Shown: positions 2,183 to 28,134, counted from the stretch's first letter. The stretch is DNA of 64,000 bases from a bacterium (GCA_037141055.1 JBAXDH010000001.1:9301-73300); one strand, 5' to 3'. Program-made: numbers and translations. The notes: generated by a model not told the origin, from the sequence alone.

Positions 2183-2335
2183 TGGTTATTTTTTATTTCA
2201 GAGAAACGCAACGTCGCGCCGTTGTCAAAAATAGAAAAAAGCCGGTTACATTGCCCGGTTGCTTTATTTTTTGCATGCATTTTTTGCATTTTGACGTTTC
2301 ATTTTTATCGTAGCTTTGCACCATACAATCGGAAA

Positions 2336-3052
2336 ATGACCAAACTGAGCGTCAATATCAACAAAATAGCGACTCTTCGGAATGCACGCGGGGGCGATCT
2401 GCCAAATGTGGTGCGTACCGCCCTGAACTGCGAGCGCTTCGGAGCCCAGGGAATCACGGTTCATCCCCGGCCGGATGAGCGGCACATAACCTATAAGGAT
2501 GTTCTGGATCTGAAACCGGTGCTGACTACTGAATTTAATATCGAGGGTTACCCGTCGCGGTCATTCATCGACCTGGTGATCAGCGTGAAGCCGGCACAGG
2601 TTACCCTGGTTCCTGATCCTCCGGGAGTTCTCACATCAAATGCCGGATGGGATACTGTTCAGCATGAGTCATTTTTGCGGTCGGTCGTAGAGGAGTTTCA
2701 TCAGCACGGAATCCGTACATCCATTTTTATTGAAACAGACCACGCAATGATCCGGAATGCCAGAAAAACAGGGACCGACCGGATTGAACTTTACACGGAG
2801 TTCTATGCAAGGAATTATCCGTCGGGGCGGGAAGAGGCGGTCAGACCATTTGTAAGCGCGGCGGTCACGGCAATGGAAGCAGGGCTGGGCATCAATGCAG
2901 GCCATGATCTCAACCTTGAAAATCTGAAGTTTTTTGCGGCGACCGTGCCCGGGTTGCTTGAAGTCTCCATCGGCCATGCCCTGATCTGCGATGCCCTCAA
3001 TTTCGGCCTGGAAAACACGATACAATTGTACCGGCGGCAGTTACAGAAATAA
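2336..3052 (+). CDS. pdxJ: pyridoxine 5'-phosphate synthase
   Basis: [21 protein letters not shown]....A......[15 protein letters not shown] and a C-terminal EVSIGHALI. The ATG at 2336 was chosen over the 2165 ORF start, whose extension has no homology signal. Confidence 0.9.
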
Positions 3053-3074
3053 CATACGATATCAGAATCACCAC

Positions 3075-13308: not shown

Positions 13309-15425
13309 TGAAAAAGATCTTTTTCCGCAAAGGACTGGCCTACAAGCTGATCATCTCCATTATGATCACGCTGGGCATTATTTTCCTCCTTCTCTTCTCC
13401 TACAACCTGGTAATTACAAGAAAAATAATCGTTAAGAACCTCGAAGCCAACGCCGAAAACCTGACAGGTGCAACGGTTGCAAGGATTGAGAAAGTTCTCA
13501 GCAGCATTCAGAAGATTCCCGATAATTATGCTCCGATTATGGAGCTTCATCTTGATTCGGACAAAGACATGAAGGAACTCCTCTCCCTGATGGTTGCGGG
13601 CAACAAGGAGATTCTCGGCGCCTGCCTTGCCTTCGAGCCGTACTCAAGGAATCCTGCCGAAAGATACTTTTCCTATTACTATTACTGGAAACACGATTCG
13701 CTCTCCTTCATGAGGCTTGGAAACGACCAGTACGACTATTTTACCCTTGATTGGTACCAGATTCCCAAGGAGTTGGGGAAGTCGGTATGGAGTGAGCCCT
13801 ATTATGATGAAGGAGGTGTAGAACAGCTGGTTTCAACCTATTCTGTTCCGCTGTATGACCGGAGAAACAATCAGAAGAAATTTGTCGGAATACTTACCAT
13901 TGATTTGTCGCTTGAGTGGTTTCAGAAAAATGTGAATCAGATCCAGGTATATGAAACGGGTTTTGGGTTTCTGATTTCAAAGAATGGCGTGATCGTGAGC
14001 CATCCGATGAAAGAGTACATCATGAATGAAACCATCTTCAGCATTGCAGATGAACGTATTTCCCCGGGACTGAGAATGGTCGGGAGGGAGATGATAAACG
14101 GCAATTCCGGGTTTAAGGAGATATCATACAACAATGCAAAAAACGGGAAGGCCAGCTGGCTGGCGTATGCTCCTGTTTCGCTGAACGGATGGTCGATCGG
14201 CGTGGTTTTTCCGGTTGATGAGTTTATGGCAGACGCCAACCATCTCAGCCGGGTAATCGCTGCACTGGCTGCGTTCGGTTTTGTGGTGCTCCTCATCCTG
14301 CTCATAGCCATTGCCCGGTCAATCACCAAACCTTTAAGGCAGCTCACGCTCGCATCGGAAAAATTCGCCCAGGGTGAATTCGACGTTGAACTCCCGGAGA
14401 TCAGGTCAAAGGATGAAATCGGACGGTTGAACGGCTCGTTTATCTCGATGCAAAAACAATTGGTGAAAACCATCCATGAACTCAGGGAAGCATCTGAACA
14501 GCTGCTTGATTCGAATGAAAAACTGGCAGAGTACAACAGGACACTCGAGCAGAAGGTGGATGAACGAACGGTCGAGTTAAGGCAGAAACATTCGGAACTG
14601 GATGAGGCGTTCCAGGAACTGAAGGCTGCCCAGTCGCAACTGGTTCAGTCGGAAAAAATGGCATCCCTGGGTCAGCTCACTGCCGGAATCGCACATGAAA
14701 TTAAGAATCCGCTGAATTTTGTCAATAATTTCTCGGAATTATCGGTCGAACTCACCCAGGAGATGCTGGAAGAACTGGGTAAACTTTCCGGCAACCTTGA
14801 TCCGAAGGACATGGATTACCTCACAGGCATCATTACCGATCTGCAGTCCAACGTAAAAAAAATCAACGATCATGGAAAGCGGGCCGACAGCATCATCCGC
14901 GGGATGCTGCTCCACGCGCGGGGCAAATCGGGAGAAAGACAGCCTACCGATCTCAATGCGGTCCTTTCCGAATATGTCAATCTCGGGTATCATGGGATGA
15001 GGGCTTCCGACAACACTTTTAACGTTAAAATTGAAAGTGATTACGATCCCGCGCTTGGAATGGTGACCGTTGTGCCGCAGGATATCAGCCGGGTCTTCCT
15101 CAACATGGTCAACAATGCATTTTATTCCACCGCACAAAAAAAGAAAGAGCTGAACGAAACCTATTTCCCTGTCGTGAAAGTGAGTACCAGGAACCTGGGC
15201 GACAAAGTGGAGATCAGGATCCGCGACAATGGCAAAGGGATGCCCGCGGCTGTTGCAGAAAAGGTTTTCAACCCGTTCTTCACCACCAAGCCCGCCGGCT
15301 CAGGCACGGGCCTCGGCCTTTCGATCAGTTTCGACATCATCGTCCAGCAGCACAGGGGCCAGATTCAGGTCGACAGCGTGGAGGGTGAATATGCAGAATT
15401 TATCATCACACTTCCGAAAATATAA
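13305..15425 (+). CDS. sensor histidine kinase (TM, Cache-like periplasmic domain, TM, HAMP, coiled coil, HisKA, HATPase_c)
   Basis: Cache-like block YDYFTLDWYQ...SEPYYDEGG..LVSTYSVPLY; H-box SEKMASLGQLTAGIAHEIKNPLNF; N-box FLNMVNNAFYS; G-boxes IRDNGKGM and GSGTGLGLSIS. Confidence 0.85.
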   Translation: MMKKIFFRKGLAYKLIISIMITLGIIFLLLFSYNLVITRKIIVKNLEANAENLTGATVARIEKVLSSIQKIPDNYAPIMELHLDSDKDMKELLSLMVAGNKEILGACLAFEPYSRNPAERYFSYYYYWKHDSLSFMRLGNDQYDYFTLDWYQIPKELGKSVWSEPYYDEGGVEQLVSTYSVPLYDRRNNQKKFVGILTIDLSLEWFQKNVNQIQVYETGFGFLISKNGVIVSHPMKEYIMNETIFSIADERISPGLRMVGREMINGNSGFKEISYNNAKNGKASWLAYAPVSLNGWSIGVVFPVDEFMADANHLSRVIAALAAFGFVVLLILLIAIARSITKPLRQLTLASEKFAQGEFDVELPEIRSKDEIGRLNGSFISMQKQLVKTIHELREASEQLLDSNEKLAEYNRTLEQKVDERTVELRQKHSELDEAFQELKAAQSQLVQSEKMASLGQLTAGIAHEIKNPLNFVNNFSELSVELTQEMLEELGKLSGNLDPKDMDYLTGIITDLQSNVKKINDHGKRADSIIRGMLLHARGKSGERQPTDLNAVLSEYVNLGYHGMRASDNTFNVKIESDYDPALGMVTVVPQDISRVFLNMVNNAFYSTAQKKKELNETYFPVVKVSTRNLGDKVEIRIRDNGKGMPAAVAEKVFNPFFTTKPAGSGTGLGLSISFDIIVQQHRGQIQVDSVEGEYAEFIITLPKI

Positions 15426-15430
15426 TGTAA

Positions 15431-16615
15431 ATGACAGAACCCGGTTACAAAAACGTGAAAATCATGGTGGTCGACGATGAAGTCGATCTTGAGCCGTTGA
15501 TCCGCCAGAAGTTCCGCCGCCAGGTCCGTGACGGAGTATACGATTTCGTTTTTGCCCATAACGGGCTTGAAGCACTGACAAAACTCATCGAATACCCGGA
15601 GATCGGGATCATCCTTTCGGATATCAACATGCCGGAAATGGACGGACTCACGCTGCTCATGAAACTGAAGGAGCTCAAGAATCCCGGGCTCAAAACAGTT
15701 ATCGTGTCTGCCTACGGCGATATGGAGAACATCCGGACCGCCATGAACCGCGGCGCTTTTGATTTTCTGACCAAGCCGATCAGTTTTGACGACCTTGAAA
15801 TCACCATCAATAAAACGATGGATGAAATCATGCAGCTTCGCCATTCGATGGAAGAACATGACCAGCTGATTTCGATCCAGCAGGATTTACAAACCGCCCA
15901 TGAAATCCAGCAGGCGATCCTGCCCAAGGTATTTCCCCCGTTCCCGTCGCGCAAGGACTTTGACATTTATGCCGCGATGATTGCGGCCCGTGAGGTCGGT
16001 GGCGATTTTTTCGACTTTTTCATGATCGATAACGACCGGCTCGGGTTTGTGATCGGCGATGTTTCTGGGAAAGGTGTCCCCGCAGCGATATTCATGGCGG
16101 TGAGCCGTACGCTGATCAGGGCGACGGGGCTCAAGGCCATTCCTGCGGCAGAGTGCATGAACTATGTCAACAGCCTGCTGTGCAACGAGAGTGTTTCCTG
16201 CATGTTTGTGACGGTTTTCTACGGCATCCTGAATACAGAAACTGGAGAACTTGAATATGTGAATGCAGGGCATAATCCTCCGTACCTGTTAACCGCCAAC
16301 GGGTTAAAAAAGGTGGCGATGACAGGCGGGACCATCCTGGGCTGCATCGAAGAATTTCAGTATAAATCAAACCGGATCATGCTTGCTCCCGGTGACCGGC
16401 TTTTCCTTTACACCGATGGCGTGACGGAAGCCTTTACCAAAGAAAATGAGGCTTACGGGGACGACAGGCTCGAGGCGTATCTTACGCAGAATAGCGGGAA
16501 TACGATCGAAGAATTGGTGCGGGGCTGCCTGAAAGAGGTAAACGACCATTCGCTTGGGATCCCCCAGTCCGATGATATCACGCTGCTCTCGATCCATTTC
16601 AGCGGAAAACATTAA
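15431..16615 (+). CDS. response regulator: receiver domain fused to a PP2C/SpoIIE serine phosphatase (RsbU-like)
   Basis: Receiver: VDDE...ILSDINMPEMDG...KP. PP2C: AREVGGDFFDF, GDVSGKGVPAAIFMA, LYTDGVTEA, SDDITLL. Confidence 0.9.
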   Translation: MTEPGYKNVKIMVVDDEVDLEPLIRQKFRRQVRDGVYDFVFAHNGLEALTKLIEYPEIGIILSDINMPEMDGLTLLMKLKELKNPGLKTVIVSAYGDMENIRTAMNRGAFDFLTKPISFDDLEITINKTMDEIMQLRHSMEEHDQLISIQQDLQTAHEIQQAILPKVFPPFPSRKDFDIYAAMIAAREVGGDFFDFFMIDNDRLGFVIGDVSGKGVPAAIFMAVSRTLIRATGLKAIPAAECMNYVNSLLCNESVSCMFVTVFYGILNTETGELEYVNAGHNPPYLLTANGLKKVAMTGGTILGCIEEFQYKSNRIMLAPGDRLFLYTDGVTEAFTKENEAYGDDRLEAYLTQNSGNTIEELVRGCLKEVNDHSLGIPQSDDITLLSIHFSGKH

Positions 16616-16635
16616 GAAAGTGTCATTTCAGAGCA

Positions 16636-17847
16636 ATGAAAGTAATTGTTAAACAGTCGGATGCTTTTGATGTTCTGGAGGTTCAGGGCAGGATCGACGG
16701 GCTTACCGCAACGGAATTAAAGCTTGCAGCCGAGCAGTGCATGAATGGAGGTGCGCGTCAGCTCGTTTTCGATTGTTCGGCGGTTACTTACCTCAGCAGT
16801 GCAGGGTTGCGCGTCTTCATGCAAACCTGGAAATCGCTCAGCATGATCGGGGGAAAAATGGTTCTGATGGCAGTGCCTACTGCGGTTATGGATGTGTTCA
16901 GGATCAGCGGCATGGATAATTTCATGATCTTTGTTGACGACTTATCTGTTCTTGAAGCTGCTCTGCCGGTTGTCGAGCCGGAAGATGCCGCAGAGGTGCT
17001 GAATTTTAAGGAGTTTACTTTTGAGATGAAATCTTCCATTGGTTCAGTCGGCACATTGCGCAGGCTTGGTTCTCCCGCTCACCTCGAACAGGCGGCTTTC
17101 GTACAGGAGGACGTCGTCCCCGTGCCCCAGTGCGAGATCACATACGGGGCGGGCCTTGCTGTGCTGGGGAACGATTTTGAGGATTACGGGAATCTTTTCG
17201 GAGAGGCAGCCGTGATAAATCACCGTTTTTTTTCATACCCGGCTGTCAAAAGGCCGTTCGTCGATTTTTCCGGGTTCAGCAGTGAAAATCCCACCACCCT
17301 GAATTTCCTGTACGGATTCGGTTTCAGCGGCAATTTTTCGAAGGTATTGAAAATGTCGGGCCAGGCAGAAGCCGCAACTGTCGAAGAAATACTCGGGGCT
17401 GCAGGAAATGTGGCCGGAGGGAATTTGTTCGGGGTGGTGATCCTGGCAGTCAGCGGCGGAATTTTCGGCATGCACCTGCGCAAATCACCCATCCGGGAAA
17501 ATAACCCTTCGCAAACCATGATTCTCGATGGCAACCGTTTTGCAGAATGGATGAATTTTTCCTTCGATGGCGAAGATATTCACAAGATTATCGTTGCAAC
17601 CGGCATCGCCGTTCGCGATCCGGACCTTCTCCCGGAGGGCATGAAAAAGTTTTTTCCTGTAAACTCAGCATGTCACCTGCATGCGGTTGTATTCGAAAAC
17701 GGACTGCTGAGCCTTCAGATCAAAGAATTTGAATCGGAACTCGAGCGGGTGATGAAGGAGTTTGAAGCACAAAAGGTGGTCCACCTGCTGCCGTCATCAC
17801 GGCTGCAGAGTGGCTTTATCGGCATCATAAACCTGGAGGCAAACTGA
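16636..17847 (+). CDS. STAS-domain protein (anti-sigma-factor-antagonist fold) with a ~290-aa unassigned C-terminal domain
   Basis: Residues 1-~105 are SpoIIAA/RsbV-like (LEVQGRIDG..A.EL...., FDCSAVTYLSSAGLRVF). The remaining ~290 aa match nothing I recognise. Confidence 0.8.
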   Translation: MKVIVKQSDAFDVLEVQGRIDGLTATELKLAAEQCMNGGARQLVFDCSAVTYLSSAGLRVFMQTWKSLSMIGGKMVLMAVPTAVMDVFRISGMDNFMIFVDDLSVLEAALPVVEPEDAAEVLNFKEFTFEMKSSIGSVGTLRRLGSPAHLEQAAFVQEDVVPVPQCEITYGAGLAVLGNDFEDYGNLFGEAAVINHRFFSYPAVKRPFVDFSGFSSENPTTLNFLYGFGFSGNFSKVLKMSGQAEAATVEEILGAAGNVAGGNLFGVVILAVSGGIFGMHLRKSPIRENNPSQTMILDGNRFAEWMNFSFDGEDIHKIIVATGIAVRDPDLLPEGMKKFFPVNSACHLHAVVFENGLLSLQIKEFESELERVMKEFEAQKVVHLLPSSRLQSGFIGIINLEAN

Positions 17848-19799
17848 TGGAATTGTGGATCGGAGCGGTGAACCTTGGCATACTGTACGCCTTCATGGCC
17901 ATCGGCACGTATATTACCTATAAACTCTACTCTTTTCCCGACATCACCATCGACGGTACTTTTACCACCGGGGCGGCCGTTGCATCCATCCTGGTTGTGG
18001 ATGGCTGGAACCCGATGCTCGTCCTGCCGGTTGCATTCCTGGTAGGTTCCCTCGCCGGGTTTGTCACCGGTTTTATTCACACGCGGTTTAAAATTGAAGG
18101 ATTGCTTGCCGGAATCCTGGTCATGACGGGGCTCTATTCGGTGAACCTCCACATCATGGGAAAATCCAACATCCCGTTGATGAACAGCAGCACCTTCGTT
18201 TCAATACTTTCATCGATGAATCCCGGGATGAACCCGGAACTGTGGAGTTGCATCTTCCTGGTGATGCTCATGCTGGTCTTCTGGATGGCGGTTTCACTGT
18301 TTCTGAATACCGACTACGGGCTCACCATGCGCGCCACCGGGAACAATCCGGTGATGGTAGCCGCCCAGGGTGTATCAGTAAACCGGATGAAGATTTTCGG
18401 GATTGCCCTGGCCAACGGATTTGTAGGGATTTCCGGGGCGCTGGTTGCACAATACCAGGGTTTTGCCGACATCGGGATGGGGACAGGCTCCATCATTTTC
18501 AGCCTCGCCTCCGTGATCATCGGGGAGGCGATACTTCGCCACCGCTCGATGTATGTCCAGATCCTCGGCGTGATCCTCGGCTCAATCATTTTCAGGCTGG
18601 CAGTTGCACTTGCGCTAAATTTCGGAATGAACCCCAATGACCTCAAGCTCATCACTGCATTCTTTGTGCTGATGACCCTGGTCGCCTCCGGATCATTTGC
18701 AACCAGGTCAAACGGCGTATTTAAATATCTTCATGAGGTTTACCGGAGAAACCGGAGAAGTTTTGTGATCATTTTCCTGTGTGTGGTGGTCTTCCTGGCC
18801 GGGTACTCGATCCGCAAACAGAAACAGGCGGTAACCGAAGACGTGAAGATGGTGAAGATCGGGATCATCATGGCCAACAACAGCGATATCGTTTCAAAAA
18901 CACGCGACGGCATCATGAGTGAACTGGGGAAACTTGGCTATGTAAGCGGAAAAAACTGCATCATCCTGGAGCAGAATGCAGAGGGTGACATCCCGACAAA
19001 CCAGACCATCATCGACCATTACCTGAATGAGAAGGTCGATATTTTTGTTCCTGTATCGACCGCTTCCACGCAGGCAGCTCTCAATAAAATCAAAGACCGG
19101 CCGATCATATTTGCCACGGTTGCAAATCCGTTTGTGATCGGCGCAGGCACCACTCCGGTCGACCACCCGGCCAACGTCACAGGAGTTTACGGTTCTTCAC
19201 CAATAAAGGAGCTGCTGGGAGTTTTCAGGAAAATGCATTCCGGCAAGGTGAAGATCGGAACCATCTATAACCCGGCTTATCCCAATACGGTATCCAACCT
19301 GAAAGATCTGAAAAAGGCGCTGCAGGACGATCCCGATATCTCGCTGGAGGAGGTTACGGTGTCGAATTCAAATGATGTTTACCAGGCAGCCCTGGCACTG
19401 TCGTCAAAGAAAATTGCAGCCTTTGTCCTGATCAATGATCTTACGGTCTTCAATTCTTTCGAATCCGTGGTCAGGATTTCAAAAAACAACAGGATCCCGA
19501 TTTTTACCTGCGACGCGGAAAGACTGAAGGACGGGGCCCTGGTTGTTTACGGATTTGAATATTTTGTGAGTGGCATGCAGGCTGCGCATCTCATCGACCG
19601 CATCCATCGCGGGGAAAGCCCTGCGCATATCCCGTTCGAGAAATATAAAATAGTTACGTACGGCATTAATTTTGACGTTGCCAGGGAACTTGGTGTGATC
19701 ATCCCTTCATCGGTTCAATCGGAAGCGGATGCATCGGTGAAGAACGGCATTTTGACCAAACAGCCGTTTGTGCTGCCGGAAGAAAAAAAAGTTCAATAA
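17847..19799 (+). CDS. ABC transporter permease (COG4120-type) fused to a COG2984-type substrate-binding domain
   Basis: The N-terminal ~290 aa are a multi-TM branched-chain-type permease. An extra TM follows (FVIIFLCVVVFLAGYSI). Then comes a ~320-aa ABC_sub_bind-like domain (KIGIIMANNS..., FVPVSTASTQAAL, IFATVANP, IPIFTCD). Confidence 0.8.
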   Translation: MELWIGAVNLGILYAFMAIGTYITYKLYSFPDITIDGTFTTGAAVASILVVDGWNPMLVLPVAFLVGSLAGFVTGFIHTRFKIEGLLAGILVMTGLYSVNLHIMGKSNIPLMNSSTFVSILSSMNPGMNPELWSCIFLVMLMLVFWMAVSLFLNTDYGLTMRATGNNPVMVAAQGVSVNRMKIFGIALANGFVGISGALVAQYQGFADIGMGTGSIIFSLASVIIGEAILRHRSMYVQILGVILGSIIFRLAVALALNFGMNPNDLKLITAFFVLMTLVASGSFATRSNGVFKYLHEVYRRNRRSFVIIFLCVVVFLAGYSIRKQKQAVTEDVKMVKIGIIMANNSDIVSKTRDGIMSELGKLGYVSGKNCIILEQNAEGDIPTNQTIIDHYLNEKVDIFVPVSTASTQAALNKIKDRPIIFATVANPFVIGAGTTPVDHPANVTGVYGSSPIKELLGVFRKMHSGKVKIGTIYNPAYPNTVSNLKDLKKALQDDPDISLEEVTVSNSNDVYQAALALSSKKIAAFVLINDLTVFNSFESVVRISKNNRIPIFTCDAERLKDGALVVYGFEYFVSGMQAAHLIDRIHRGESPAHIPFEKYKIVTYGINFDVARELGVIIPSSVQSEADASVKNGILTKQPFVLPEEKKVQ

Positions 19800-19853
19800 G
19801 CAAATATGCGTGACATGTTTCATCAAACCACCAATATGCTTTAAGCGGCCCTT

Positions 19854-20666
19854 ATGATTGCAATAACAAATGTGACTAAAACCTTTAATCCCGGAAGCAT
19901 CGACAAGGTTGAAGCCCTTAAGATGATCAGCCTTGACGTTAAGGAACATGAATTCGTTACAGTTATCGGGACCAACGGTTCCGGAAAATCGACCCTGCTG
20001 AATATGATTGCAGGCAACATCCTGCCCGACAGCGGAACCATTTCGATCGACGGGAGGGATGTTACGAAGAAGCAGGATTTTCAGCGGGCGAAGTACATCG
20101 CCCGGGTTTTTCAGAATCCGTATTCAGGTACCGCCCCCGGAATGACGATTGCAGAAAACCTGCTGATGGCGTGGTTTCGGGGCAAACACCGCTATCCCCT
20201 CACCAGTTTGAAAGGGAACCTGAAAATCCGGTTCAGGGAACAGCTTGCCTCCCTGGACATGCAGCTCGAAGACCGGCTTGAAAATCTTATGGGAAGCCTT
20301 TCAGGCGGGCAGCGCCAGGCAGTTACCCTGTTGATGGCCGTGCTGCAGACACCAGGGGTGTTGCTCCTTGATGAACATACGGCAGCGCTTGATCCTAAAA
20401 CAGCCGGCCAGGTTATTCAATTAACCAGTAAATTTGTAGCGGCAAACAGGCTTACTGTCATCCTGGTCACGCATTCCATGCAACAGGCACTCGCCATGGG
20501 TTCCAGGATTATCATGATGCACAAGGGCAGGATTATTGAGGATTTCAGCGGGGAAGAGAAGAAACGTTTGACGGCGGAAGATCTGTTGATTAAGTTTGAA
20601 GATATCAGGAAACTTGAAAAACTTACGCCTGAACTGATTGAAAACATGAAAAATCAATATATCTGA
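19854..20666 (+). CDS. ABC transporter ATP-binding protein (COG1101-type)
   Basis: Walker A GTNGSGKST, Q-loop, signature LSGGQRQA, Walker B LLLDEHTAALD and H-loop VTHSM. Confidence 0.9.
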   Translation: MIAITNVTKTFNPGSIDKVEALKMISLDVKEHEFVTVIGTNGSGKSTLLNMIAGNILPDSGTISIDGRDVTKKQDFQRAKYIARVFQNPYSGTAPGMTIAENLLMAWFRGKHRYPLTSLKGNLKIRFREQLASLDMQLEDRLENLMGSLSGGQRQAVTLLMAVLQTPGVLLLDEHTAALDPKTAGQVIQLTSKFVAANRLTVILVTHSMQQALAMGSRIIMMHKGRIIEDFSGEEKKRLTAEDLLIKFEDIRKLEKLTPELIENMKNQYI

Positions 20667-21913
20667 TGAAAAAATTTCAATTCATTTTTTTCCTGATCCT
20701 TTTCCTGGCCGGGAGTATCGCTTGCAACAAGCAGAAGGTAAGCTATATGCCTTACGGGGGACAGGAAATCCGCGTGGGGGTACTGCTGCCCCTTACCGGA
20801 ACGGGATATTCATCCGGCCAGGGCATGAAAGCATCCCTGGAACTTGCCTTGCAGGATATCAATGGATATTTTGCCGAGGACGGTATCCAGGAAAAGCTCG
20901 TTCTCAGCATTGTTGATACAAAAACAGATACCGCAGAGGCGTTGAAACAGCTGAAAATCTTTTTTGAGAATGGGATCCGCCTGGTCGTCGGGCCATACAG
21001 CAGTGCAGAACTGGCTCACATTAAGGCATTTGCCGATTCCCACGGGATATTGGTCGTAAGTCCGTCGAGCGTAGCTGTATCCCTGGCAATCCCGGACGAC
21101 AACATCTTCCGGTTTGTCACTTCGGATGTAATCCAGGGCAGGGCCATGAGCAAAATGTTATCCGAAGATAATATTAAAGTGATTTTGCCGCTGATCAGGG
21201 ATGATGTGTGGGGCAACGACCTGGTTGCAGCCACCAGCAATGATTTTATCAAAGGAGGAGGGTCGGTGCAGCCTCCCGTCAGATACGCACCGGGTACCGC
21301 CGATTTTTCCGGTGTGCTCGAACAGCTTGATGTTGAACTGGCATCCGAATTGACGCATCACAATCCCAATGAAGTGGCCGTATACATGCTTTCATTTGCA
21401 GAAGGAACGCAGATTATGGCACAAGCCAGACAACATGCGCACCTCAACAATGTATACTGGTACGGTGGTTCTGCATTTGCACAAAACGCCTCCATGCTGG
21501 GCGACACAAACGCGGCGTTGTTTGCATACACGCACGGGCTGCCATGTCCGCTGTTCGGGCTGGATGATGGCGCCGTGAACAAATGGCAGCCCCTGAAGGA
21601 CCGGATTCTGTCAGTCATCGGCCGTAATCCCGATGTTTATGCCTTTAATGCCTACGACGCTTTATGGGTGCTGGTTCGGGCATACCGGGCCGGCGGTTAT
21701 GACCTGTCTATAGAGCCTTTAAAAAAGATTTTTGTCAACGAAGCGGATAATTATTTCGGAACGTCGGGAAATACGCAACTGGACGTAAATGGCGACAGGG
21801 CTTACGGGAACTATGATTTCTGGGCCGTGAAAACGGATTCGGCGGGCTATTGCTGGAAGCGCGTTGCCCGGTATAATTCGCTTCACGGTACGATTACCAG
21901 GCTGGTTGAGTAA
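20666..21913 (+). CDS. type-1 periplasmic binding protein (LIV-binding-like) lipoprotein
   Basis: Lipobox LAGSIAC. IRVGVLLPLTGTGYSSGQG...ALELALQDIN and VVGPYSSAE are typical of Peripla_BP_6-like receptors. Confidence 0.7.
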   Translation: MKKFQFIFFLILFLAGSIACNKQKVSYMPYGGQEIRVGVLLPLTGTGYSSGQGMKASLELALQDINGYFAEDGIQEKLVLSIVDTKTDTAEALKQLKIFFENGIRLVVGPYSSAELAHIKAFADSHGILVVSPSSVAVSLAIPDDNIFRFVTSDVIQGRAMSKMLSEDNIKVILPLIRDDVWGNDLVAATSNDFIKGGGSVQPPVRYAPGTADFSGVLEQLDVELASELTHHNPNEVAVYMLSFAEGTQIMAQARQHAHLNNVYWYGGSAFAQNASMLGDTNAALFAYTHGLPCPLFGLDDGAVNKWQPLKDRILSVIGRNPDVYAFNAYDALWVLVRAYRAGGYDLSIEPLKKIFVNEADNYFGTSGNTQLDVNGDRAYGNYDFWAVKTDSAGYCWKRVARYNSLHGTITRLVE

Positions 21914-21933: not shown

Positions 21934-22410
21934 CTAAAGCCGCTTCACAAAAAACACTTTGCCGTCACCCTCCTTGTAGAAATCGTTGATTTGTGCTTCC
22001 ATCGTGTAGCCGGTCCGGTCGTAGAAATGTCTCGTCGGTGTGTATTTTTCAAGAGTTGAAGTCTCGGCGATCACGATGCGACCGCCCATCTCTTTGATGA
22101 TCCTGTGCGTTTCGCCGATCAGTTCGTTGCCGATTCCGCGACCGCGGTAGTCATTATGCGTTGCGATCCAGTAAAGGTCAAAACTGCCTTCCGTGGCGGC
22201 AACAGGGCCGAAGCAGCTGTAGGAAACGGTTTTCCCGTCGAGTTCGGCAAAAAGGAAATGGTAATCGCTCCGATCGCCCATGTCAAGTCCGTCCTGAACA
22301 AGTTCCACCGCCACGGGAACCTCGAAATCGTAAAAGAAACCGGAGGAAACGATGATATCCCTTACCGTTTCAATATCCTGTGGAATTACTTCCGTGCGAA
22401 AAGTCAGCAT
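21934..22410 (-). CDS. GNAT-family N-acetyltransferase
   Basis: 158 aa with the acetyl-CoA pyrophosphate-binding motif YRGRGIGNEL followed by ...YDRTGY.... Confidence 0.8.
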   Translation of the reverse strand: MLTFRTEVIPQDIETVRDIIVSSGFFYDFEVPVAVELVQDGLDMGDRSDYHFLFAELDGKTVSYSCFGPVAATEGSFDLYWIATHNDYRGRGIGNELIGETHRIIKEMGGRIVIAETSTLEKYTPTRHFYDRTGYTMEAQINDFYKEGDGKVFFVKRL

Positions 22411-22434
22411 GTTTGGTTGTTCTAATATGAGTAA

Positions 22435-23406
22435 TTACCGGGTTGCATCTTCCAGTATCCTTGCAATGACCTCCTCAAAGTCAAGACCTTTCTTTTTTGA
22501 GGCAGCCATGAACCCGCCCGATTCGGAAAGGCATGGGTTGAGGTTGATATCGATCACGAGCGGAACGGAAGCCTCAGTTACCCTGAAGTCGATCCGCACA
22601 TAACCTTTAAGCCCCATTTCAATCCAGCATTTTTTGCAGATGGCGGTCAGTTCGGCCTTCAGCGGTCCATCGCCTTTGCCAGGCCTGAAAGTGCGGCGGG
22701 TGTGCGAATATTCAAAAGATTTATCATCCCATTTCGACTTGTAGCCCATCATCCTGGGTTTTCCTTCAGGATAATCGTGAAAGGTCATTTCTGCAAGAGG
22801 CAGGACTTCCGGCCCGTCGGGGCTGTAAAGGATGGAAATGTTAAACTCCCGGCCTTCGATGAATTCTTCAATGAAATAGTGTTCCCGGCTTTTCCCGCCG
22901 AGTTTTTTAATAAAACCGGCATCCGAACCCATGAAGACGCAATCTTCATCCAGTTCAAGCGACCCCTCTTCCCAGATCGGTTTCACAATATACTTTGTAT
23001 CCGGCCGGAGTTTGTGACATTCATCGATGGAAAAACCCATGGGAGTCTTGACACCGATGGCATTCAGCTCTTTTTTGGCAAGTAATTTATTGGAACACAG
23101 GAACATGGGTACAAGCGGTGAACCGGTATAGGGGACTCGCACATAATTCAGCACTGAATTGGCCAGGAATGTGAATTCGCCTTTATTCCCGATCGTTTCG
23201 GCAAGGTTGAAAATAATATCGGGTTTCATCGACTGAATACGGCCGATGGCTGTTTTTAAATTCAGGTCTATCTGGAGGTACTTAACCTTGTATTTCAGAT
23301 TCGACAATGCAACCGTTACGAGATTGACCTGCTCAATTACATCAGCTTCATCATCTTTCGGGGTCTTCGATAATTTATTGTAAAGTATCAGAACAGTCTT
23401 GCTCAT
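22435..23406 (-). CDS. ATP-grasp ligase (D-Ala-D-Ala-ligase-like), paralogue 2
   Basis: ATP-grasp blocks KYIVKPIWEEGS, IEEFIEGREFNISIL and YVRIDFRV.....PLVIDINLNPCLS. The ATG at 23406 (MSKTVLILYN) was chosen because the 23505 ORF start would overlap the upstream gene by 83 nt. Confidence 0.75.
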   Translation of the reverse strand: MSKTVLILYNKLSKTPKDDEADVIEQVNLVTVALSNLKYKVKYLQIDLNLKTAIGRIQSMKPDIIFNLAETIGNKGEFTFLANSVLNYVRVPYTGSPLVPMFLCSNKLLAKKELNAIGVKTPMGFSIDECHKLRPDTKYIVKPIWEEGSLELDEDCVFMGSDAGFIKKLGGKSREHYFIEEFIEGREFNISILYSPDGPEVLPLAEMTFHDYPEGKPRMMGYKSKWDDKSFEYSHTRRTFRPGKGDGPLKAELTAICKKCWIEMGLKGYVRIDFRVTEASVPLVIDINLNPCLSESGGFMAASKKKGLDFEEVIARILEDATR

Positions 23407-23422
23407 TGCGTGGAGTTGGGTT

Positions 23423-24403
23423 TTATGACAGTCCGGTTCGTTTCCTTGCCGACAGCATGATTTCACCGATGATTCGTTCAAAATCATATCCATGTTTATA
23501 GGCAAGGATGGGCAGGTCGGAATGAACCCTGTCTAGGCCGGCAAGCGGATTTACTTCTATAAAATTCGGGGTTCCGAACCGGTCGACCCGGATGTCGACT
23601 CTTCCCCCGTCGCGGCACCCGAGCACCTGCCAGGTTTTTAAAGCCAGGTCGGCGCATTTGTCGGAAATTTCCTGCTCAGGGACCTTGTATTCAACTACAT
23701 CCAGGTAGTCGGATTTTGTCTGGTAGGAATAAATGTTTTTCGTCTCTTCCGACCGGTAAAGGATTTCCATCGTGCCAACAGCATAAGCCCCGCTGCCGGT
23801 TCCAAGAACTCCTGTCGTAAATTCACGGCCGGGCAGGAATTCCTCAACCAGGAGCCCCGACGGATACCGGGATAACAGGTCACTGCAGATGCTGTTTAGT
23901 TCTTCAGGGCTGTTTACCTTCGACAGGGCGTTGATCCCTTTCCCGGTACCCTCAGCGTTTGGTTTTACGAACAGCGGATACGGAAGATCGACATCTTTGC
24001 AATCTTCTATTTTCTCAATGATGACAAATCCGGGTGTGGGAATTCCGTAATCCCTGACAACCCGCTTGGTCAGTCCTTTGTGCAGCGTCAGCGACAGTAC
24101 GAGCGGATCGGAAAAAGTATACGGGATCTGAAAAACATCGAGCAGGGCCGGAACCTGGGCTTCACGGCCGATGCCGTGCATGCCTTCGCAGATATTGAAA
24201 ACCATGTCCCAGCGATCGCCGGCGGCAAGCCGTTTAACCAGGTGACGAACATGTCCGATCCTGTCCGTTTGATATCCAAGGGTTTGCAGCGCCAGTTCGA
24301 TGGCCTCAACAGTGCTTTCACGGTCAAATTCCGCTGTCTCCTCTTCACTGTAGCCCTCCTTCCGGTAATCCGACCGCAAATCGTACGTTAATCCGATGTT
24401 CAT
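23423..24403 (-). CDS. ATP-grasp ligase (D-Ala-D-Ala-ligase family), paralogue 1
   Basis: LFVKPNAEGTGKGI, VEEFLPGREFTTGVLG and GGRVDIRVDRFGTPNFIEVNPLAGL give the Ddl-like ATP-grasp architecture. Confidence 0.8.
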   Translation of the reverse strand: MNIGLTYDLRSDYRKEGYSEEETAEFDRESTVEAIELALQTLGYQTDRIGHVRHLVKRLAAGDRWDMVFNICEGMHGIGREAQVPALLDVFQIPYTFSDPLVLSLTLHKGLTKRVVRDYGIPTPGFVIIEKIEDCKDVDLPYPLFVKPNAEGTGKGINALSKVNSPEELNSICSDLLSRYPSGLLVEEFLPGREFTTGVLGTGSGAYAVGTMEILYRSEETKNIYSYQTKSDYLDVVEYKVPEQEISDKCADLALKTWQVLGCRDGGRVDIRVDRFGTPNFIEVNPLAGLDRVHSDLPILAYKHGYDFERIIGEIMLSARKRTGLS

Positions 24404-24406
24404 GGG

Positions 24407-25678
24407 TTATTGGGTAAAATCGGGATACCTGAAAACCTTGTCTTCGTAGTTTTTCAGCAATACGTAGTCGTCTTCGCGGCCGATAAAATAATCGGGAAGG
24501 AGGGGAATCTTGCCTCCGCCTCCCGGGGCATCAACCACGTACGTGGGAACGGCATATCCGCTGGTATGGCCGCGCAGACCCCTTATTATTTCGAGCCCTT
24601 TTTCAATGGTCGTGCGGAAATGGCCGGATCCGACCACCGGGTCGCATTGATACAGGTAATATGGGCGGACCCTTATTTTCAGCAATGCATGCATGAGGTT
24701 CTTCATTACCTGCACATCATCGTTGATCCCTTTGAGTAAAACGGTCTGGCTGCCCAGTGGAATGCCGGCATTGGCAAGCCTTTCACAAGCCTCCCTTACT
24801 TCCGGCGTGATTTCATCGGCATGGGTGAAATGAATGCTCATGAAAACCGGATGATACTTTTTCAGCATGTTGACGAGGGGCCGTGTGATGCGTTGCGGCA
24901 GCACTGCCGGTACTTTTGTGCCAATGCGGATTATCTCGACATGCGGGATGTTTCGCAAACGCGAGAGCAGGTATTCAACATGCAGATCGGGCATGGTAAG
25001 CGGATCGCCTCCTGAAACCAGCACGTCACGAACCTCCGGGTGCTGTTCGATGTAATTCAGTCCTGCCTCCCACGATTTGACCCCGATGTGGCATTTGTTC
25101 TTGGCAACCATCCGGGTGCGGGTGCAATAGCGGCAATAGGTGGAACAAAAACCGGTGACAAGGAACAGCACCCTGTCGGGGTACCGGTGAACGATATTCG
25201 GCACCGGGCTGTCATGTTCTTCCGACAAAGGATCGGAAGCTTCACCGGGGTGTAACAGGAATTCATCAAATACCGGCACAACGCTTTTGCGCAGGGCCTG
25301 TTCCGGGTTGTCCGGGTCCAAAAGGCTGATATAATAGGGGGAAATTCTCAATGGCAATGACTGCCCTGCCGCACCATCGGGTTTTACTTCATTGTCCGAC
25401 AGTCTGATAAACCTTGACAGTTGGTTGATGGACCGGGCACTGTTTTTAATTTGCCAGTGCCAGCTGTTCCAGTCCCTTGCCGTTGCTTCAGGAAAATAAG
25501 TCTGCAAAAACGAAAGAGATCGTTCACTGATGGTGGTTTTATCGCGATCACCGCGCGATTTTAAATATTCGTCTAAAAGGGATGCTTCATCTATGAAGGT
25601 GGGCTGACCTGGGGGTTCTTCTTCTTCGGATAACTCGGGACGGGTAATAACCAGTTTCTCAGTTGGATTTTTTTCCAT
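24407..25678 (-). CDS. kamA: lysine 2,3-aminomutase (KamA-family radical SAM/PLP enzyme)
   Basis: Radical-SAM cluster CSTYCRYCTR and PLP-lysine block VVDAPGGGGK. The YQCD and VVD aspartates are spaced 37 residues apart, as for the epsilon-amino-binding D293/D330 of Clostridium LAM. The overall block order is that of LAM. Confidence 0.9.
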   Translation of the reverse strand: MEKNPTEKLVITRPELSEEEEPPGQPTFIDEASLLDEYLKSRGDRDKTTISERSLSFLQTYFPEATARDWNSWHWQIKNSARSINQLSRFIRLSDNEVKPDGAAGQSLPLRISPYYISLLDPDNPEQALRKSVVPVFDEFLLHPGEASDPLSEEHDSPVPNIVHRYPDRVLFLVTGFCSTYCRYCTRTRMVAKNKCHIGVKSWEAGLNYIEQHPEVRDVLVSGGDPLTMPDLHVEYLLSRLRNIPHVEIIRIGTKVPAVLPQRITRPLVNMLKKYHPVFMSIHFTHADEITPEVREACERLANAGIPLGSQTVLLKGINDDVQVMKNLMHALLKIRVRPYYLYQCDPVVGSGHFRTTIEKGLEIIRGLRGHTSGYAVPTYVVDAPGGGGKIPLLPDYFIGREDDYVLLKNYEDKVFRYPDFTQ

Positions 25679-25816
25679 TTTATTTTTCTCGGTTTTGAGG
25701 TAGATTAATGATGTCCCCTGCCTGTAAAGTAAATGCTTAACATGGTATAAATCAATATATTATGATTGAAAATTGAGGTCATCGCAGGTCTTGAAATTTC
25801 ACTTGCAAATAGGGGA

Positions 25817-25834
25817 CAAATTTACGTACTTTTG
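25817..25834. promoter_or_regulatory. back-to-back candidate Bacteroidota -7 boxes (TAnnTTTG) for the divergent kamA operon and hydrolase gene
   Basis: The sequence is CAAATTTACGTACTTTTG. The minus strand gives TAAATTTG and the plus strand gives TACTTTTG, about 54 nt upstream of the 25888 ATG. This is motif match only. Confidence 0.3.
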
Positions 25835-25887
25835 ACACCTCGAAACGATTTTTTTTCAACAAAATTGTGTTAATAAATAGTTATGAA

Positions 25888-26658
25888 ATGAAGCTGTTTT
25901 TTCGCAACTTCGGAAGTGGTCAGCCTGTTGTCATATTGCACGGTTTATTTGGCCTTTCCGACAACTGGGTTACCTTCGCCCGTCAGTTGGGAGAGCATTA
26001 CGCCGTATATGTGCCCGACCTGAGAAATCACGGTCAATCGCCTCACAGCATGGTGTTTGATTTTTCATCCCTTGAAAATGACATAACTGAACTTGTTGAA
26101 GAAATCGGGTCGGACCGCATTTTTCTGATCGGGCACTCCCTGGGAGGAAAAACGGCCATGTTTTTTGCGCTTCATCATCCTGAAATCGTCAGGAAACTGG
26201 TGATCGTTGACATCTCTTTGAGAAAGTCTCCGCCCGACAGTGAACATCAGCTGCTGCTCAACGCAATGATGGACGTGGATTTCAGTGAAGCAAATTCACG
26301 GAGCGATGTGGAAAAACAATTGCAGCAAACGGTGAAAAGCCAGAAACTGCGGCAATTCCTGATGAAGAATGTTTACTGGCGCGACCGGCACAGCCTCGAT
26401 TGGCGGTTAAACCTGCGGGCCATCAATGAAAACCTGATGTCGGTATTCGAGGGTGTGGATGTTTCAGGGAGTTATCCCGGACCTGCATTATTCATACGTG
26501 GTGGTTTATCGGACTATGTCAGGGATTCCGACCTGGATGACCTGAAAATGAAATTCCCCGGTTCAGAACTTGAAACCATTGCGAATGCTTCACACTGGGT
26601 TCACGCTGATGCTCCCGGGGAATTTTACAGCCTGGTGAAAAATTTCCTCGACCGGTGA
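25888..26658 (+). CDS. alpha/beta-fold hydrolase (esterase YbfF-like)
   Basis: HGLFG oxyanion motif, nucleophile elbow GHSLGG and a C-terminal HW.H catalytic His region. Confidence 0.85.
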   Translation: MKLFFRNFGSGQPVVILHGLFGLSDNWVTFARQLGEHYAVYVPDLRNHGQSPHSMVFDFSSLENDITELVEEIGSDRIFLIGHSLGGKTAMFFALHHPEIVRKLVIVDISLRKSPPDSEHQLLLNAMMDVDFSEANSRSDVEKQLQQTVKSQKLRQFLMKNVYWRDRHSLDWRLNLRAINENLMSVFEGVDVSGSYPGPALFIRGGLSDYVRDSDLDDLKMKFPGSELETIANASHWVHADAPGEFYSLVKNFLDR

Positions 26659-27594
26659 TCAGTACCGGTTGATTTCAATTTTCGAAATGGCTGTCTTGAT
26701 CGTGATGAAGATTTTATTTTTACCACTTGTGAAATTTGCAGTCTGGTAAATTCCGTCTCCTTTCTTTGTGAACCCGTCGAATTCTTTGCTGATCATAAAT
26801 GATTCCGATTTGATCTGGCACCCCGATCCCTTCGGAACATCCACCTTGATGGATGATGCTCCTGCATTAAAGGTCATGACGGTGAGCGGGCTTTTGTCAC
26901 CTATTTTTATGTCGATGGATGATGCCCCCGCATTAATGTTCGTGGTGTCGATTTTATAATCCCTCAGGTCCATCTGAATCTCGGCAGCTCCGATGTCAAA
27001 ATCGAGATTCCATGTTGGTTTCTCATTGAGCCGGATTTCAACTTTATTCTCATTCACGGTGTGCCTGACACCTGATTTCTCCAGTGACAGGTTGATCTGT
27101 TTCCGGCCGTTTTCATTGGATGTCGTGAGGGAGTAGTTCCCGATATCCCCGGTTTTATCGAATGCGAGAAAATCGGAAGTGACACCCTGCAGGTTGAAAT
27201 TGCCTGCAGAAGCCTCGAGTTTCAGTTCACCTTTGGTGATCAGGGAATCAAAGGGCACGCTCAGGTTTTGCGGCAGGTTGTTGTTTGCAGTGGTATCTTC
27301 ATCGTCCTGCCAGTCTTTGTTGGAAAACCCATGGAAATTATCAATGTGAAACCACGAGGACCGCTCTGAAATCCGGTTGAAAAAGACGGCTGTGAGCGCA
27401 AGTACGGCTACGAGTGCAACGATTTTGATGCTGTCTTTGATGGGTAAAATTGAGATTCCCCACAGGACCAGGATCAATGGCCAGAGACTCCACAGCGCAT
27501 GGAATCCGAATTCCAGCACTCCGAAATTGTTCAGCATAAATAAAATCCCGATGGCGATCAGGATAATTGCCCAGAATACATGACGATATTTCAT
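26659..27594 (-). CDS. membrane protein with LiaF/LiaI-like N-terminal TM hairpins and a beta-rich C-terminal domain
   Basis: WAIILIAIGILFMLNNFG......LWPLILVLWGISIL is the LiaI-LiaF-like TM pattern. The C-terminal half has repetitive beta strands. The gene sits directly downstream of pspC. Confidence 0.55.
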   Translation of the reverse strand: MKYRHVFWAIILIAIGILFMLNNFGVLEFGFHALWSLWPLILVLWGISILPIKDSIKIVALVAVLALTAVFFNRISERSSWFHIDNFHGFSNKDWQDDEDTTANNNLPQNLSVPFDSLITKGELKLEASAGNFNLQGVTSDFLAFDKTGDIGNYSLTTSNENGRKQINLSLEKSGVRHTVNENKVEIRLNEKPTWNLDFDIGAAEIQMDLRDYKIDTTNINAGASSIDIKIGDKSPLTVMTFNAGASSIKVDVPKGSGCQIKSESFMISKEFDGFTKKGDGIYQTANFTSGKNKIFITIKTAISKIEINRY

Positions 27595-27606
27595 TGGTGC
27601 AGGGTT

Positions 27607-28134
27607 TTAAAATTGGTTTGAATTGCGGTTCCGTTTCGTAAAAGCGTTGAGGAGCATCCCTACTCCGGCAACAATAATGATGACAGGCCAGAGATCGCCG
27701 AAGCTGATCTGGGGGATGAGTTCGTCGGCAAGAAATAAGCCGCCCAGTGTAATGAGTACAAGGCCACCGATCAAACTGCCTTTGTTCCGTTCCCTGGTTT
27801 GCGGGGTTGGTGGCGATGCCTGCTGAGGCGTTTCAGTTGTTGAATTTTCCGCGGTTTGCCCGGAAGGTTCTGCCGTGAAATCTGTTGGCCCGGGGTTCGG
27901 CTGTTTAAAGTCCTGACCCGGTTTGTATGCTGAGGCATACGTTCTTACAGGGTTTTCCGGGGTGACAATCCAGAGCACCAGGTAAATCAGGAAGCCGCCG
28001 CCTCCGGCAAGTGTCAGGATGACAAATGCAAGGCGCACGAGCAGCGGGTCCATTACAAAATATTCGGCCAATCCGCCGGCAACACCGGCAAATTTGCGGT
28101 CAGATGTGCTTCGATATAAGCGTTTAGGTTCCAT
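27607..28134 (-). CDS. PspC-domain envelope-stress protein
   Basis: LYRSTSDRKFAGVAGGLAEYF.MDP.LVRLAFVIL.L.GG.G...Y..LWIV is the canonical PspC domain. Confidence 0.85.
   Translation of the reverse strand: MEPKRLYRSTSDRKFAGVAGGLAEYFVMDPLLVRLAFVILTLAGGGGFLIYLVLWIVTPENPVRTYASAYKPGQDFKQPNPGPTDFTAEPSGQTAENSTTETPQQASPPTPQTRERNKGSLIGGLVLITLGGLFLADELIPQISFGDLWPVIIIVAGVGMLLNAFTKRNRNSNQF

Follow-up and report, generated by a model that had tools for sequence, protein, structure and literature searches.

An operon of four genes on the minus strand of a 64,000-nt stretch of bacterial DNA (GCA_037141055.1 JBAXDH010000001.1:9301-73300, the whole of which is called the window here and supplies the numbering of the cluster) encodes a KamA-family aminomutase of the radical S-adenosylmethionine (SAM) type, two ATP-grasp ligases with the fold of D-alanine--D-alanine ligase (Ddl), named AG1 and AG2, and a GNAT N-acyltransferase. 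On balance, and with moderate confidence, we favor the view that these genes make up a cytoplasmic biosynthetic cassette for a small amide derived from beta-lysine. No published pathway that matches the conserved operon was found, so the cluster probably makes a common small molecule that is still undescribed. The features of the cluster are as follows.

24407-25678, minus strand: KamA-family aminomutase using radical SAM and pyridoxal phosphate (PLP), a predicted L-lysine 2,3-aminomutase (423 aa)
23423-24403, minus strand: AG1, an ATP-grasp carboxylate-amine ligase of the Ddl fold (326 aa; Pfam Dala_Dala_lig_C)
22435-23406, minus strand: AG2, a second, divergent ATP-grasp ligase of the Ddl fold (323 aa; Pfam Dala_Dala_lig_C and ATP-grasp_3)
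21934-22410, minus strand: GNAT N-acyltransferase (158 aa; Pfam Acetyltransf_7/_1, PF13508 and PF00583)
25124-25147, minus strand: CxxxCxxC motif of KamA for [4Fe-4S]/SAM (C178, C182, and C185), from alignment to 2A5H
24509-24643, minus strand: substrate and PLP residues of KamA, D346 (in YQCD) and D383 and K390 (in VVDAPGGGGK), from alignment to 2A5H
25604-25630, minus strand: acidic E-P-P-[S/G] short linear motif in the KamA tail, S17-EEEEPPG-Q25 (aa 17 to 25)
22129-22146, minus strand: acetyl-CoA loop of GNAT, R89-G-R-G-I-G94, intact as read in the sequence
25679-25866, no strand assigned: intergenic region of 188 nt, common to kamA and a divergent alpha/beta-hydrolase gene, the presumed operon promoter region

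The four genes are codirectional, with intergenic gaps of 3, 16, and 24 nt. This layout had been given in a preliminary description of the window, and the open reading frame (ORF) calls bear it out; Pfam matches likewise confirmed that the cluster holds two different ATP-grasp ligases and a GNAT of 158 aa. The AG2 start was placed at the ATG of Met34 within a longer ORF that begins with TTG; homologues are 323 to 325 aa long. The same four gene calls are found on the public contig CAZVSB010000001.1 (GCA_964630165.1), and base composition across the window is in no way unusual.

KamA was aligned to the lysine 2,3-aminomutase (LAM) of Clostridium subterminale (PDB 2A5H). The alignment is gapless over residues 9 to 366 (E = 1e-130), with 51.5% identity over 357 aa, compared with 35.5% identity to Escherichia coli EpmB. 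The three cluster cysteines (C178, C182, and C185) correspond to C125, C129, and C132 of 2A5H, R187 to R134, D346 and D383 (37 residues apart) to D293 and D330, and K390, within VVDAPGGGGK, to K337. In 2A5H we take R134 to bind the substrate carboxylate, D293 and D330 to bind the epsilon-ammonium group, and K337 to bind PLP. The radical-SAM motif and PLP block of the preliminary description, as well as its lysine-type pair of aspartates in YQCD and VVD, are thus upheld by the structure-based reference. Glutamate 2,3-aminomutase has Lys and Asn at the D293 and D330 positions; Asp at both positions in KamA therefore points to a basic substrate. Because the catalytic and substrate residues are fully kept, KamA is predicted to be a lysine 2,3-aminomutase that would convert free L-lysine to beta-lysine.

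Next, KamA was scored on curated NCBIfam models with their cut-offs. The sole model that it passed was that of the KamA subfamily (TIGR00238; 377 bits, cut-off 199), which accords with the NCBI label of its relatives, "KamA family radical SAM protein." AblA was the best named model (TIGR03820), at 474.5 bits against a cut-off of 525.4. The models for EpmB (261.6 bits against 369.3) and glutamate 2,3-aminomutase (TIGR04368; 438.6 bits against 650) were not reached, and neither was an arginine aminomutase-type model. A placement of the enzyme nearer to KamA/AblA than to EpmB is therefore supported by score (474 versus 262 bits) as well as by identity (51.5% versus 35.5%). KamA has no counterpart of the C-terminal Zn-binding domain of clostridial LAM: its chain stops near LAM residue 370, and the LAM Zn ligand C268 is replaced by D321. 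The Zn ligands of 2A5H are presumably C268 and a CxCxxC motif near residues 375 to 380. At its other end, KamA has an N-terminal extension of about 55 residues relative to the clostridial enzyme.

The two ligases resemble Ddl in fold and catalytic residues and depart from it in specificity positions. On the NCBIfam Ddl subfamily model (cut-off 243), AG1 scored 151.5 bits and AG2 scored 90.3 bits. Identity to E. coli DdlB is 27.5% for AG1 and 25.3% for AG2, and the two are about 23 to 25% identical to each other. When 71 AG1 and 71 AG2 members were aligned with DdlB (DdlB numbering), K97, K144, E180, E187, K215, R255, D257, E270, and N272, which make up all of the ATP, Mg, and transition-state residues of DdlB, were kept in 71/71 members of each family. 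At the D-Ala specificity positions, AG1 has an invariant Asp for L282 (D296), a Glu for H63 (E73, also seen in the HMMER pairwise alignment), and a variable residue for Y216; AG2 has an invariant Trp for Y216, Gly for L282, and mostly Cys for G276. At E15 and H63, a small L-INS-i alignment is at odds with both HMMER and the larger alignment. Since the alignments disagree, reliance was limited to positions in the C-terminal domain and to H63, for which two of the three alignments agree. The AlphaFold (AF2) model of AG1 had a predicted local distance difference test (pLDDT) score of 88.5, and its 50 best fold matches in the PDB were all Ddl/Van-type ligases, with a template modeling (TM) score of about 0.75 and 18 to 26% identity; this fold search of the PDB returned no characterized structure nearer to AG1. 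The retained catalytic set, the changed specificity positions, the missed cut-offs, and the Ddl/Van fold together indicate that AG1 and AG2 are competent Ddl-branch carboxylate-amine ligases, predicted to have new specificities and not to be cell-wall Ddl. That they are not ordinary D-Ala-D-Ala ligases, as the preliminary description had supposed, thus finds support in scores, low DdlB identity, and residues alike.

GNAT was scored in the same manner. It reached just 16.9 bits on the AblB model (TIGR03827; cut-off 205.1), and its best named model was RimI, weakly (35.6 bits against a cut-off of 86.4). An orthologue with a crystal structure exists (PDB 2R7H, E = 2.9e-40), deposited as a "putative D-alanine N-acetyltransferase of GNAT family" and, we presume, a structural-genomics entry from Desulfovibrio G20. 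A metagenome-assembled genome (MAG) of Oleidesulfovibrio carries a gene 73% identical to 2R7H inside a complete cluster (L081), and a search of the full-text literature returned no paper that discusses the function of 2R7H. No protein of the cluster reaches the curated cut-off of AblA, EpmB, Eam, Ddl/Van, or AblB. Relatives of AG1 and AG2 are labeled "D-alanine--D-alanine ligase" or ATP-grasp proteins in public databases; judged by the scores and residues given here, neither this ligase name nor "putative D-alanine N-acetyltransferase" is backed.

Conservation of the neighborhood was examined in public genomes. A scan with AG1, using one genome per species, gave at least 585 confirmed relatives, and scanning with the 2R7H sequence as well brought in additional phyla. 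For gene-order analysis, 160 related loci (L numbers) were fetched, almost all of them MAG contigs. All four genes are clustered in 103 of these loci, from more than 12 phyla. With K for KamA, 1 for AG1, 2 for AG2, G for GNAT, and H for a GNAT-deacetylase fusion described below, the orders found were K-1-2-G (69 loci), K-1-2-H-G (12), K-1-2-G-H (4), and K-H-1-2-G (2), together with orders in which K trails, 1-2-G-K (14), 1-2-G-K-H (1), and 1-1-2-G-K (1). Many of the other 57 loci are short contigs or have the match close to a contig end. Carriers include Bacteroidota, Thermodesulfobacteriota, Planctomycetota, Aminicenantes, Acidobacteriota (Thermoanaerobaculia), Ignavibacteria, Calditrichia, Gemmatimonadota, Spirochaetia, Gammaproteobacteria (Woeseia), Riflemargulisbacteria, and others, and they come from freshwater, peat, groundwater, reactor, and marine habitats. 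Identity across phyla is highest for AG1 and KamA (55 to 64%) and lower for AG2 and GNAT (30 to 50%).

Clustering of all ORFs from the 160 loci recovered the two ligases in 143 loci, GNAT in 136, KamA in 114, and the GNAT-deacetylase fusion in 21. Besides these, no gene family recurs across phyla, whether transporter or exporter, efp, epmA, kamDE, or hydrolase. This bears on a catabolic role, in lysine fermentation or beta-lysine salvage. KamA does carry out the first step of clostridial lysine fermentation, but no partner family of the kamDE, kdd, kce, or kal-like kind is conserved in the 160 loci, and ligases that consume ATP, like an acetyltransferase, are out of keeping with a fermentative route; we find a catabolic role scarcely credible.

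The cluster genes also occur fused. A phmmer search with AG1 of 1.84 billion cluster representatives showed that the AG1 family comprises 696 clusters (50% identity) at E <= 1e-30. Two matched ATP-grasp stretches, AG1 being at either end, occur in about 38 proteins of 540 to 790 aa among the best 150 AG1 relatives; Pfam and sequence confirmed the tandem ATP-grasp arrangement in P0121, P0138, P0140, and P0249. A further protein, P0152, joins KamA to AG1 (Radical_SAM, LAM_C, and Dala_Dala_lig_C domains). These fused proteins are metagenomic gene calls; they are too numerous and too diverse to be assembly errors. Since 103 of the 160 loci carry all four genes clustered and fused genes exist as well, the adjacency of the four genes is not due to chance, and the conserved neighborhood, which the preliminary description had set as a check, is real. 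The gene content, the catalytic competence at sequence level, the linkage, the fusions, and the modular variants described below are established.

These data also dispose of a conventional explanation, namely, that the operon is an ordinary AblA/AblB operon that makes N-epsilon-acetyl-beta-lysine as an osmolyte, with paralogues of the cell-wall D-Ala-D-Ala ligase as chance neighbors. AblA is indeed the top-scoring named model for KamA, and the ligases do bear the Ddl name in databases. However, the GNAT score on the AblB model (16.9 of the 205.1 bits required) and the ligase scores, far under the Ddl cut-offs and accompanied by changed specificity residues, contradict it, as do the co-occurrence of the four genes across phyla and their fusion. 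This explanation was rejected as very improbable.

Smaller gene sets suggest how the cassette may be subdivided. The kamA-AG1 pair occurs alone in L054 (Thermoguttaceae) and L078, and kamA-AG2-GNAT occurs without AG1 in L100 (Spirochaetia). From these pairs, the KamA-AG1 fusion, and the sets limited to AG2 and GNAT that are described below, AG1 appears to be the partner most tightly bound to KamA and the one that would take beta-lysine; AG2 and GNAT can be read as a separable second module. The acidic replacements in the AG1 pocket, taken with the self-sufficient KamA-AG1 modules, suggest that at least one partner of AG1, and possibly both, is cationic.

The same observations could suit an iterative action of AG1 and AG2, in which, in place of a defined di- or tripeptide, the product would be poly- or oligo-beta-lysine, serving as a cationic polymer or store with acetyl caps. 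If AG1 links one beta-lysine to another, KamA-AG1 pairs and the fusion can do without a second specific substrate; the replacements at Ddl H63 and L282 are acidic, and iterative ATP-grasp enzymes exist, such as cyanophycin synthetase and RimK. Yet the characterized enzymes of the Ddl branch form single bonds, the pairing of two distinct ligases with a GNAT for capping points to a short, defined product, and no primer or hydrolase gene (e.g., cyanophycinase) is conserved with the cluster. We regard a polymer as unlikely.

Two Nitrospinota loci hold a related arrangement: L117 (6414-8468) and L144 (2158-4221) encode an AG2-like ligase, a GNAT, and a pyruvoyl-dependent arginine decarboxylase in a tight operon with no aminomutase. 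This arrangement hints that the AG2/GNAT module is able to work with another cationic amine, possibly agmatine.

A fifth, facultative partner was found in at least 21 loci, at three different positions. It is a protein of about 590 aa in which a GNAT-like domain is fused to an HDAC domain (Pfam). The window has no such gene; examples from related loci are as follows.

L081, 8688-10448: GNAT-deacetylase fusion
L068, 4232-6004: GNAT-deacetylase fusion
L114, 9340-11082: GNAT-deacetylase fusion

The HDAC half is nearest to the acetylpolyamine amidohydrolases 9GKZ, 6PHR, and 3Q9B (E of about 1e-63 to 1e-56), and protein deacetylases are more distant. This proximity points to a small molecule that bears an N-acetylated primary alkylamine as the substrate of the fusion. 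The epsilon-acetyl group of a beta-lysine residue is one such group.

Taken together, the genes could support the following route. The KamA-type enzyme would convert free L-lysine to beta-lysine. AG1 would take beta-lysine directly, activating a carboxylate as an acyl phosphate and then joining it to an amine; in the simplest case, beta-lysine would be joined to beta-lysine or lysine. AG2, acting with AG1 (often as one polypeptide), would form a second ATP-dependent amide bond, and GNAT would acetylate a remaining free amine. In many genomes, the GNAT-deacetylase fusion could then remove or exchange the acetyl group, for turnover or for control of charge. The product would be an N-acetylated beta-lysine di- or tripeptide or short oligomer, kept inside the cell, where it may serve as a compatible solute, a polyamine-like cation buffer, or a nitrogen store. 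Judged by eye only, the four proteins have no signal-like hydrophobic segment at the N terminus, and this, together with the lack of a conserved exporter, argues for a cytoplasmic product. All the refuting conditions named in the preliminary description that lend themselves to computation turned out in favor of its reading. We infer the substrates of AG1, AG2, and GNAT, the order of the steps, the physiological role, and the identity of the product.

Several observations weigh against this route. The putative substrates of AG1, AG2, and GNAT were deduced from their gene context and from a few positions in the pocket. The residue equivalent to Ddl E15 differs between alignments, so that mapping of the N-terminal domain is alignment dependent there. 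Clusters of AG1, AG2, and GNAT without kamA exist (L012, L045, L073, and L088), and an AG2-like ligase and a GNAT occur alone, with no aminomutase, in Chloroflexota, Nitrospinota, and Gammaproteobacteria; therefore, beta-lysine made nearby is not a requirement for all members of these ligase and GNAT families. The habitats of carriers are mixed (fresh water, peat, reactors, and marine), and a purely osmotic role is thus unsupported by habitat. Finally, a plain soluble pathway leaves the conserved E-P-P-[S/G] tail of KamA unexplained.

This tail was characterized in the related loci, where KamAs are either long and tailed (type A) or short (type B). Apart from the motif [E/D]-x-[E/D]-E-P-P-[S/G], which is conserved across phyla, the N-terminal extension varies among type A KamAs; the motif is found in its strict form in 73 of 88 long KamAs and in a relaxed form in 84 of the 88. 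Among other ORFs, 915,670 aa contained 17 matches, mostly N-terminal remnants of KamA or split genes. Residues 1 to 29 of KamA have a pLDDT of about 30 (AlphaFold) and are predicted to be disordered. In the Tenuifilaceae-like loci L051, L066, and L074, the catalytic part of kamA has been lost and the first 24 codons are kept (72 to 78% nucleotide identity); in a second lineage (L034 and L044), an N-terminal KamA fragment of about 155 aa is likewise retained. The retained motif ORFs and N-terminal remnants are as follows.

L051, 5438-5520: retained motif ORF
L066, 5607-5690: retained motif ORF
L074, 5464-5545: retained motif ORF
L034, 3755-4213: N-terminal KamA remnant
L044, 3740-4213: N-terminal KamA remnant

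When L051, L066, and L074 were compared, the 30 nt upstream were 81 to 87% identical and included an AACAAC..GTTGTT palindrome, the AG1 gene was 73.5 to 76% identical, and the 150 nt after the leader dropped to 40 to 45%. Within the stretch F-S-E-D-D/E-E-P-P-S, five of the six variable codons differ synonymously only. Where the catalytic part of KamA has been lost, the E-P-P-[S/G] leader thus appears to be under selection at the peptide level. Against a universal role, type B clusters have no motif, nor do four kamA-less clusters, and the KamA-AG1 fusion P0152 has just "VEPS" at this position.

Two further arrangements of the motif were observed. L067 (301-735 with 737-2095) and L080 (1694-2215 with 2193-3575) have an extra upstream ORF with a second copy, "NETDEPPS," before a full kamA. 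In L155 (5792-6958; Gemmatimonadales), the sole type B locus with the motif, an AG1-like ligase has the loop insert AEEPPS before a conserved DDEFAEWD segment, which may be a coincidence.

Docking, covalent scaffolding, and translational arrest are possible roles for the tail. We think it quite doubtful that the motif is a working part of the system in either of two more specific senses, as a LysW-like covalent scaffold for the beta-lysine product or as a nascent-peptide XPPX arrest element that would sense the cationic product and throttle the operon. For the arrest version, a parallel would be the PPW element of AZIN1, which is sensitive to polyamines, or the SpeFL leader, which senses ornithine.

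The tail also bears on the question of whether the cluster modifies a protein or peptide, with the ligases attaching or building beta-lysine on elongation factor P (EF-P), a ribosomal protein, or the E-P-P-[S/G] tail itself (as a LysW-like scaffold) and with GNAT and the deacetylase acting on the tethered group. The ATP-grasp enzymes RimK and LysX modify acidic protein tails, and here a strongly conserved acidic motif lies in a disordered tail and persists where the catalytic part of KamA is lost. RimI is the best named model for GNAT, if a weak one (35.6 of 86.4 bits), and HDAC-fold enzymes include protein deacetylases. Nevertheless, sequence and fold both place the ligases in the small-molecule Ddl branch, the deacetylase is nearest to polyamine and not protein deacetylases, and type B clusters, like several clusters without kamA, do not have the motif. 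No candidate target gene is conserved beside the cluster; there is no efp in the window, and neither efp nor epmA is conserved with the cluster in the 160 loci. Moreover, a 2026 review places the EF-P of Bacteroidota in an unmodified subfamily (PMC12856214). The suggestion in the preliminary description that ATP-grasp enzymes might beta-lysylate EF-P is disfavored by this placement and by the lack of a linked efp or epmA, and modification of a protein or peptide in general seems to us improbable. A soluble, beta-lysine-derived amide thus stays the preferred product.

Regulatory elements were sought around the operon. No Rfam family reached its gathering score in the whole window, and nothing credible appeared at E <= 1 in the 5' region; a scan for promoters and terminators gave consensus-level promoter-like matches only, not above those in shuffled sequence. 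A sigma-54 activator adjoins kamA in 12 loci, and no TGGCAC-N5-TTGC-like site was present within 1.5 kb upstream (14 loci). In L057 (2206-4263) and 9 to 11 other Thermodesulfobacteriota-type loci, a sigma-54-dependent response regulator lies directly upstream of kamA; loci of this type also have, upstream of kamA, a small conserved protein of 82 to 125 aa with no Pfam match and the motif GVVIPVDWD....

The genes flanking the cluster in the window are of other kinds. The alpha/beta-hydrolase gene (25867-26658, plus strand), divergent from kamA, keeps its position in 33 to 34 loci, all of them from Bacteroidota; it could encode an accessory esterase or amidase peculiar to that lineage or reflect plain synteny. 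Between it and tatC, two membrane proteins with LiaF/LiaI-like and PspC domains, a pair of the envelope-stress type (26659-28134, minus strand), are syntenic in Bacteroidota relatives. On the other side, a long operon (12208-21913, plus strand) is convergent with the cluster. Its products are an NMT1-like binding protein, a Cache-HAMP histidine kinase, a fusion of a response regulator with a SpoIIE/PP2C phosphatase, a STAS protein extended by 300 aa, an ABC permease that carries a fused binding domain, an ABC ATPase, and a Peripla_BP_6 lipoprotein. Its transporter part adjoins the cluster in about 25 loci, in Bacteroidota only. Since the ABC transporter and the hydrolase are conserved beside the cluster solely among Bacteroidota relatives, they were treated as local synteny and rejected as members of the pathway.

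If the proposal is correct, many anaerobic and facultative bacteria of at least 12 phyla make an undescribed metabolite derived from beta-lysine, which would be a fifth fate of beta-lysine, the other four being the acetylated osmolyte, EF-P modification, fermentation, and the products of nonribosomal peptide synthetases. The orphan structure 2R7H and two large families that now bear the label "D-alanine--D-alanine ligase" would gain a function, and two new substrate specificities would be added to the Ddl branch of ATP-grasp ligases. Being small, soluble, and self-contained, the cassette is directly testable by expression. In the full-text literature, with subscription-only papers outside the scope of the search, no description of the cluster was found; papers on Pelobacter, on the Na+ riboswitch, and on Myxococcus concern AblAB or other KamA genes.

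Among known systems, AblA/AblB, through which methanogens and some bacteria make N-epsilon-acetyl-beta-lysine, is similar in having lysine 2,3-aminomutase first and a GNAT. It differs in that the cluster aminomutase falls under the AblA cut-off and is without the C-terminal Zn domain, the cluster GNAT is half the size of AblB and unrelated to it at the family level, and two ATP-grasp ligases are obligatory in the cluster. EpmB is likewise a KamA-family aminomutase without the C-terminal Zn domain, but the E. coli enzyme has Glu at the D330 position, where the cluster KamA has Asp; no EpmA-type ligase or efp lies near the cluster, and EpmA is a tRNA-synthetase paralogue, whereas the cluster ligases are ATP-grasp enzymes. 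AblAB, EpmAB, and lysine fermentation thus have their first step in common with the cluster, which is without the partners of all three.

The ligases share with Ddl/Van enzymes the fold (AG1, TM of about 0.75) and the ATP/Mg catalytic residues (AG1 and AG2), but unlike Ddl, they are operonic with an aminomutase and not with mur or fts genes. The HDAC domain of the facultative fifth gene is like that of acetylpolyamine amidohydrolase, from which it differs in its fusion to a GNAT-like domain at the N terminus and in its place within a beta-lysine cluster. To LysW/LysX there is a resemblance only, in that an ATP-grasp ligase goes with a short acidic motif on a protein tail; LysX belongs to the RimK-type ligases, and LysW is a small dedicated protein that bears its motif at the C terminus.

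Closer in logic are two routes to N-acetylated peptides. Bacterial synthesis of N-acetylglutaminylglutamine amide (NAGGN) reportedly uses Ngg, a GNAT-ATP-grasp fusion, plus AsnO, and mammalian synthesis of N-acetylaspartylglutamate (NAAG) uses NAT8L plus RIMKLA/B. As in the route proposed here, GNAT acetylation and ATP-grasp ligation lead to a cytoplasmic N-acetylated di- or tripeptide, a likeness in logic only: their ligases, of the RimK/cyanophycin-synthetase type, take Gln, Glu, or Asp as substrates, whereas the cluster has two Ddl-branch ligases and a beta-amino acid that would be made by a radical-SAM enzyme. By this analogy, the NAGGN and NAAG routes appear to be closer precedents than the synthesis of mycosporine-like amino acids, and we rate the cluster as a putative new form of amino-acid-derived, N-acetylated amide pathway.

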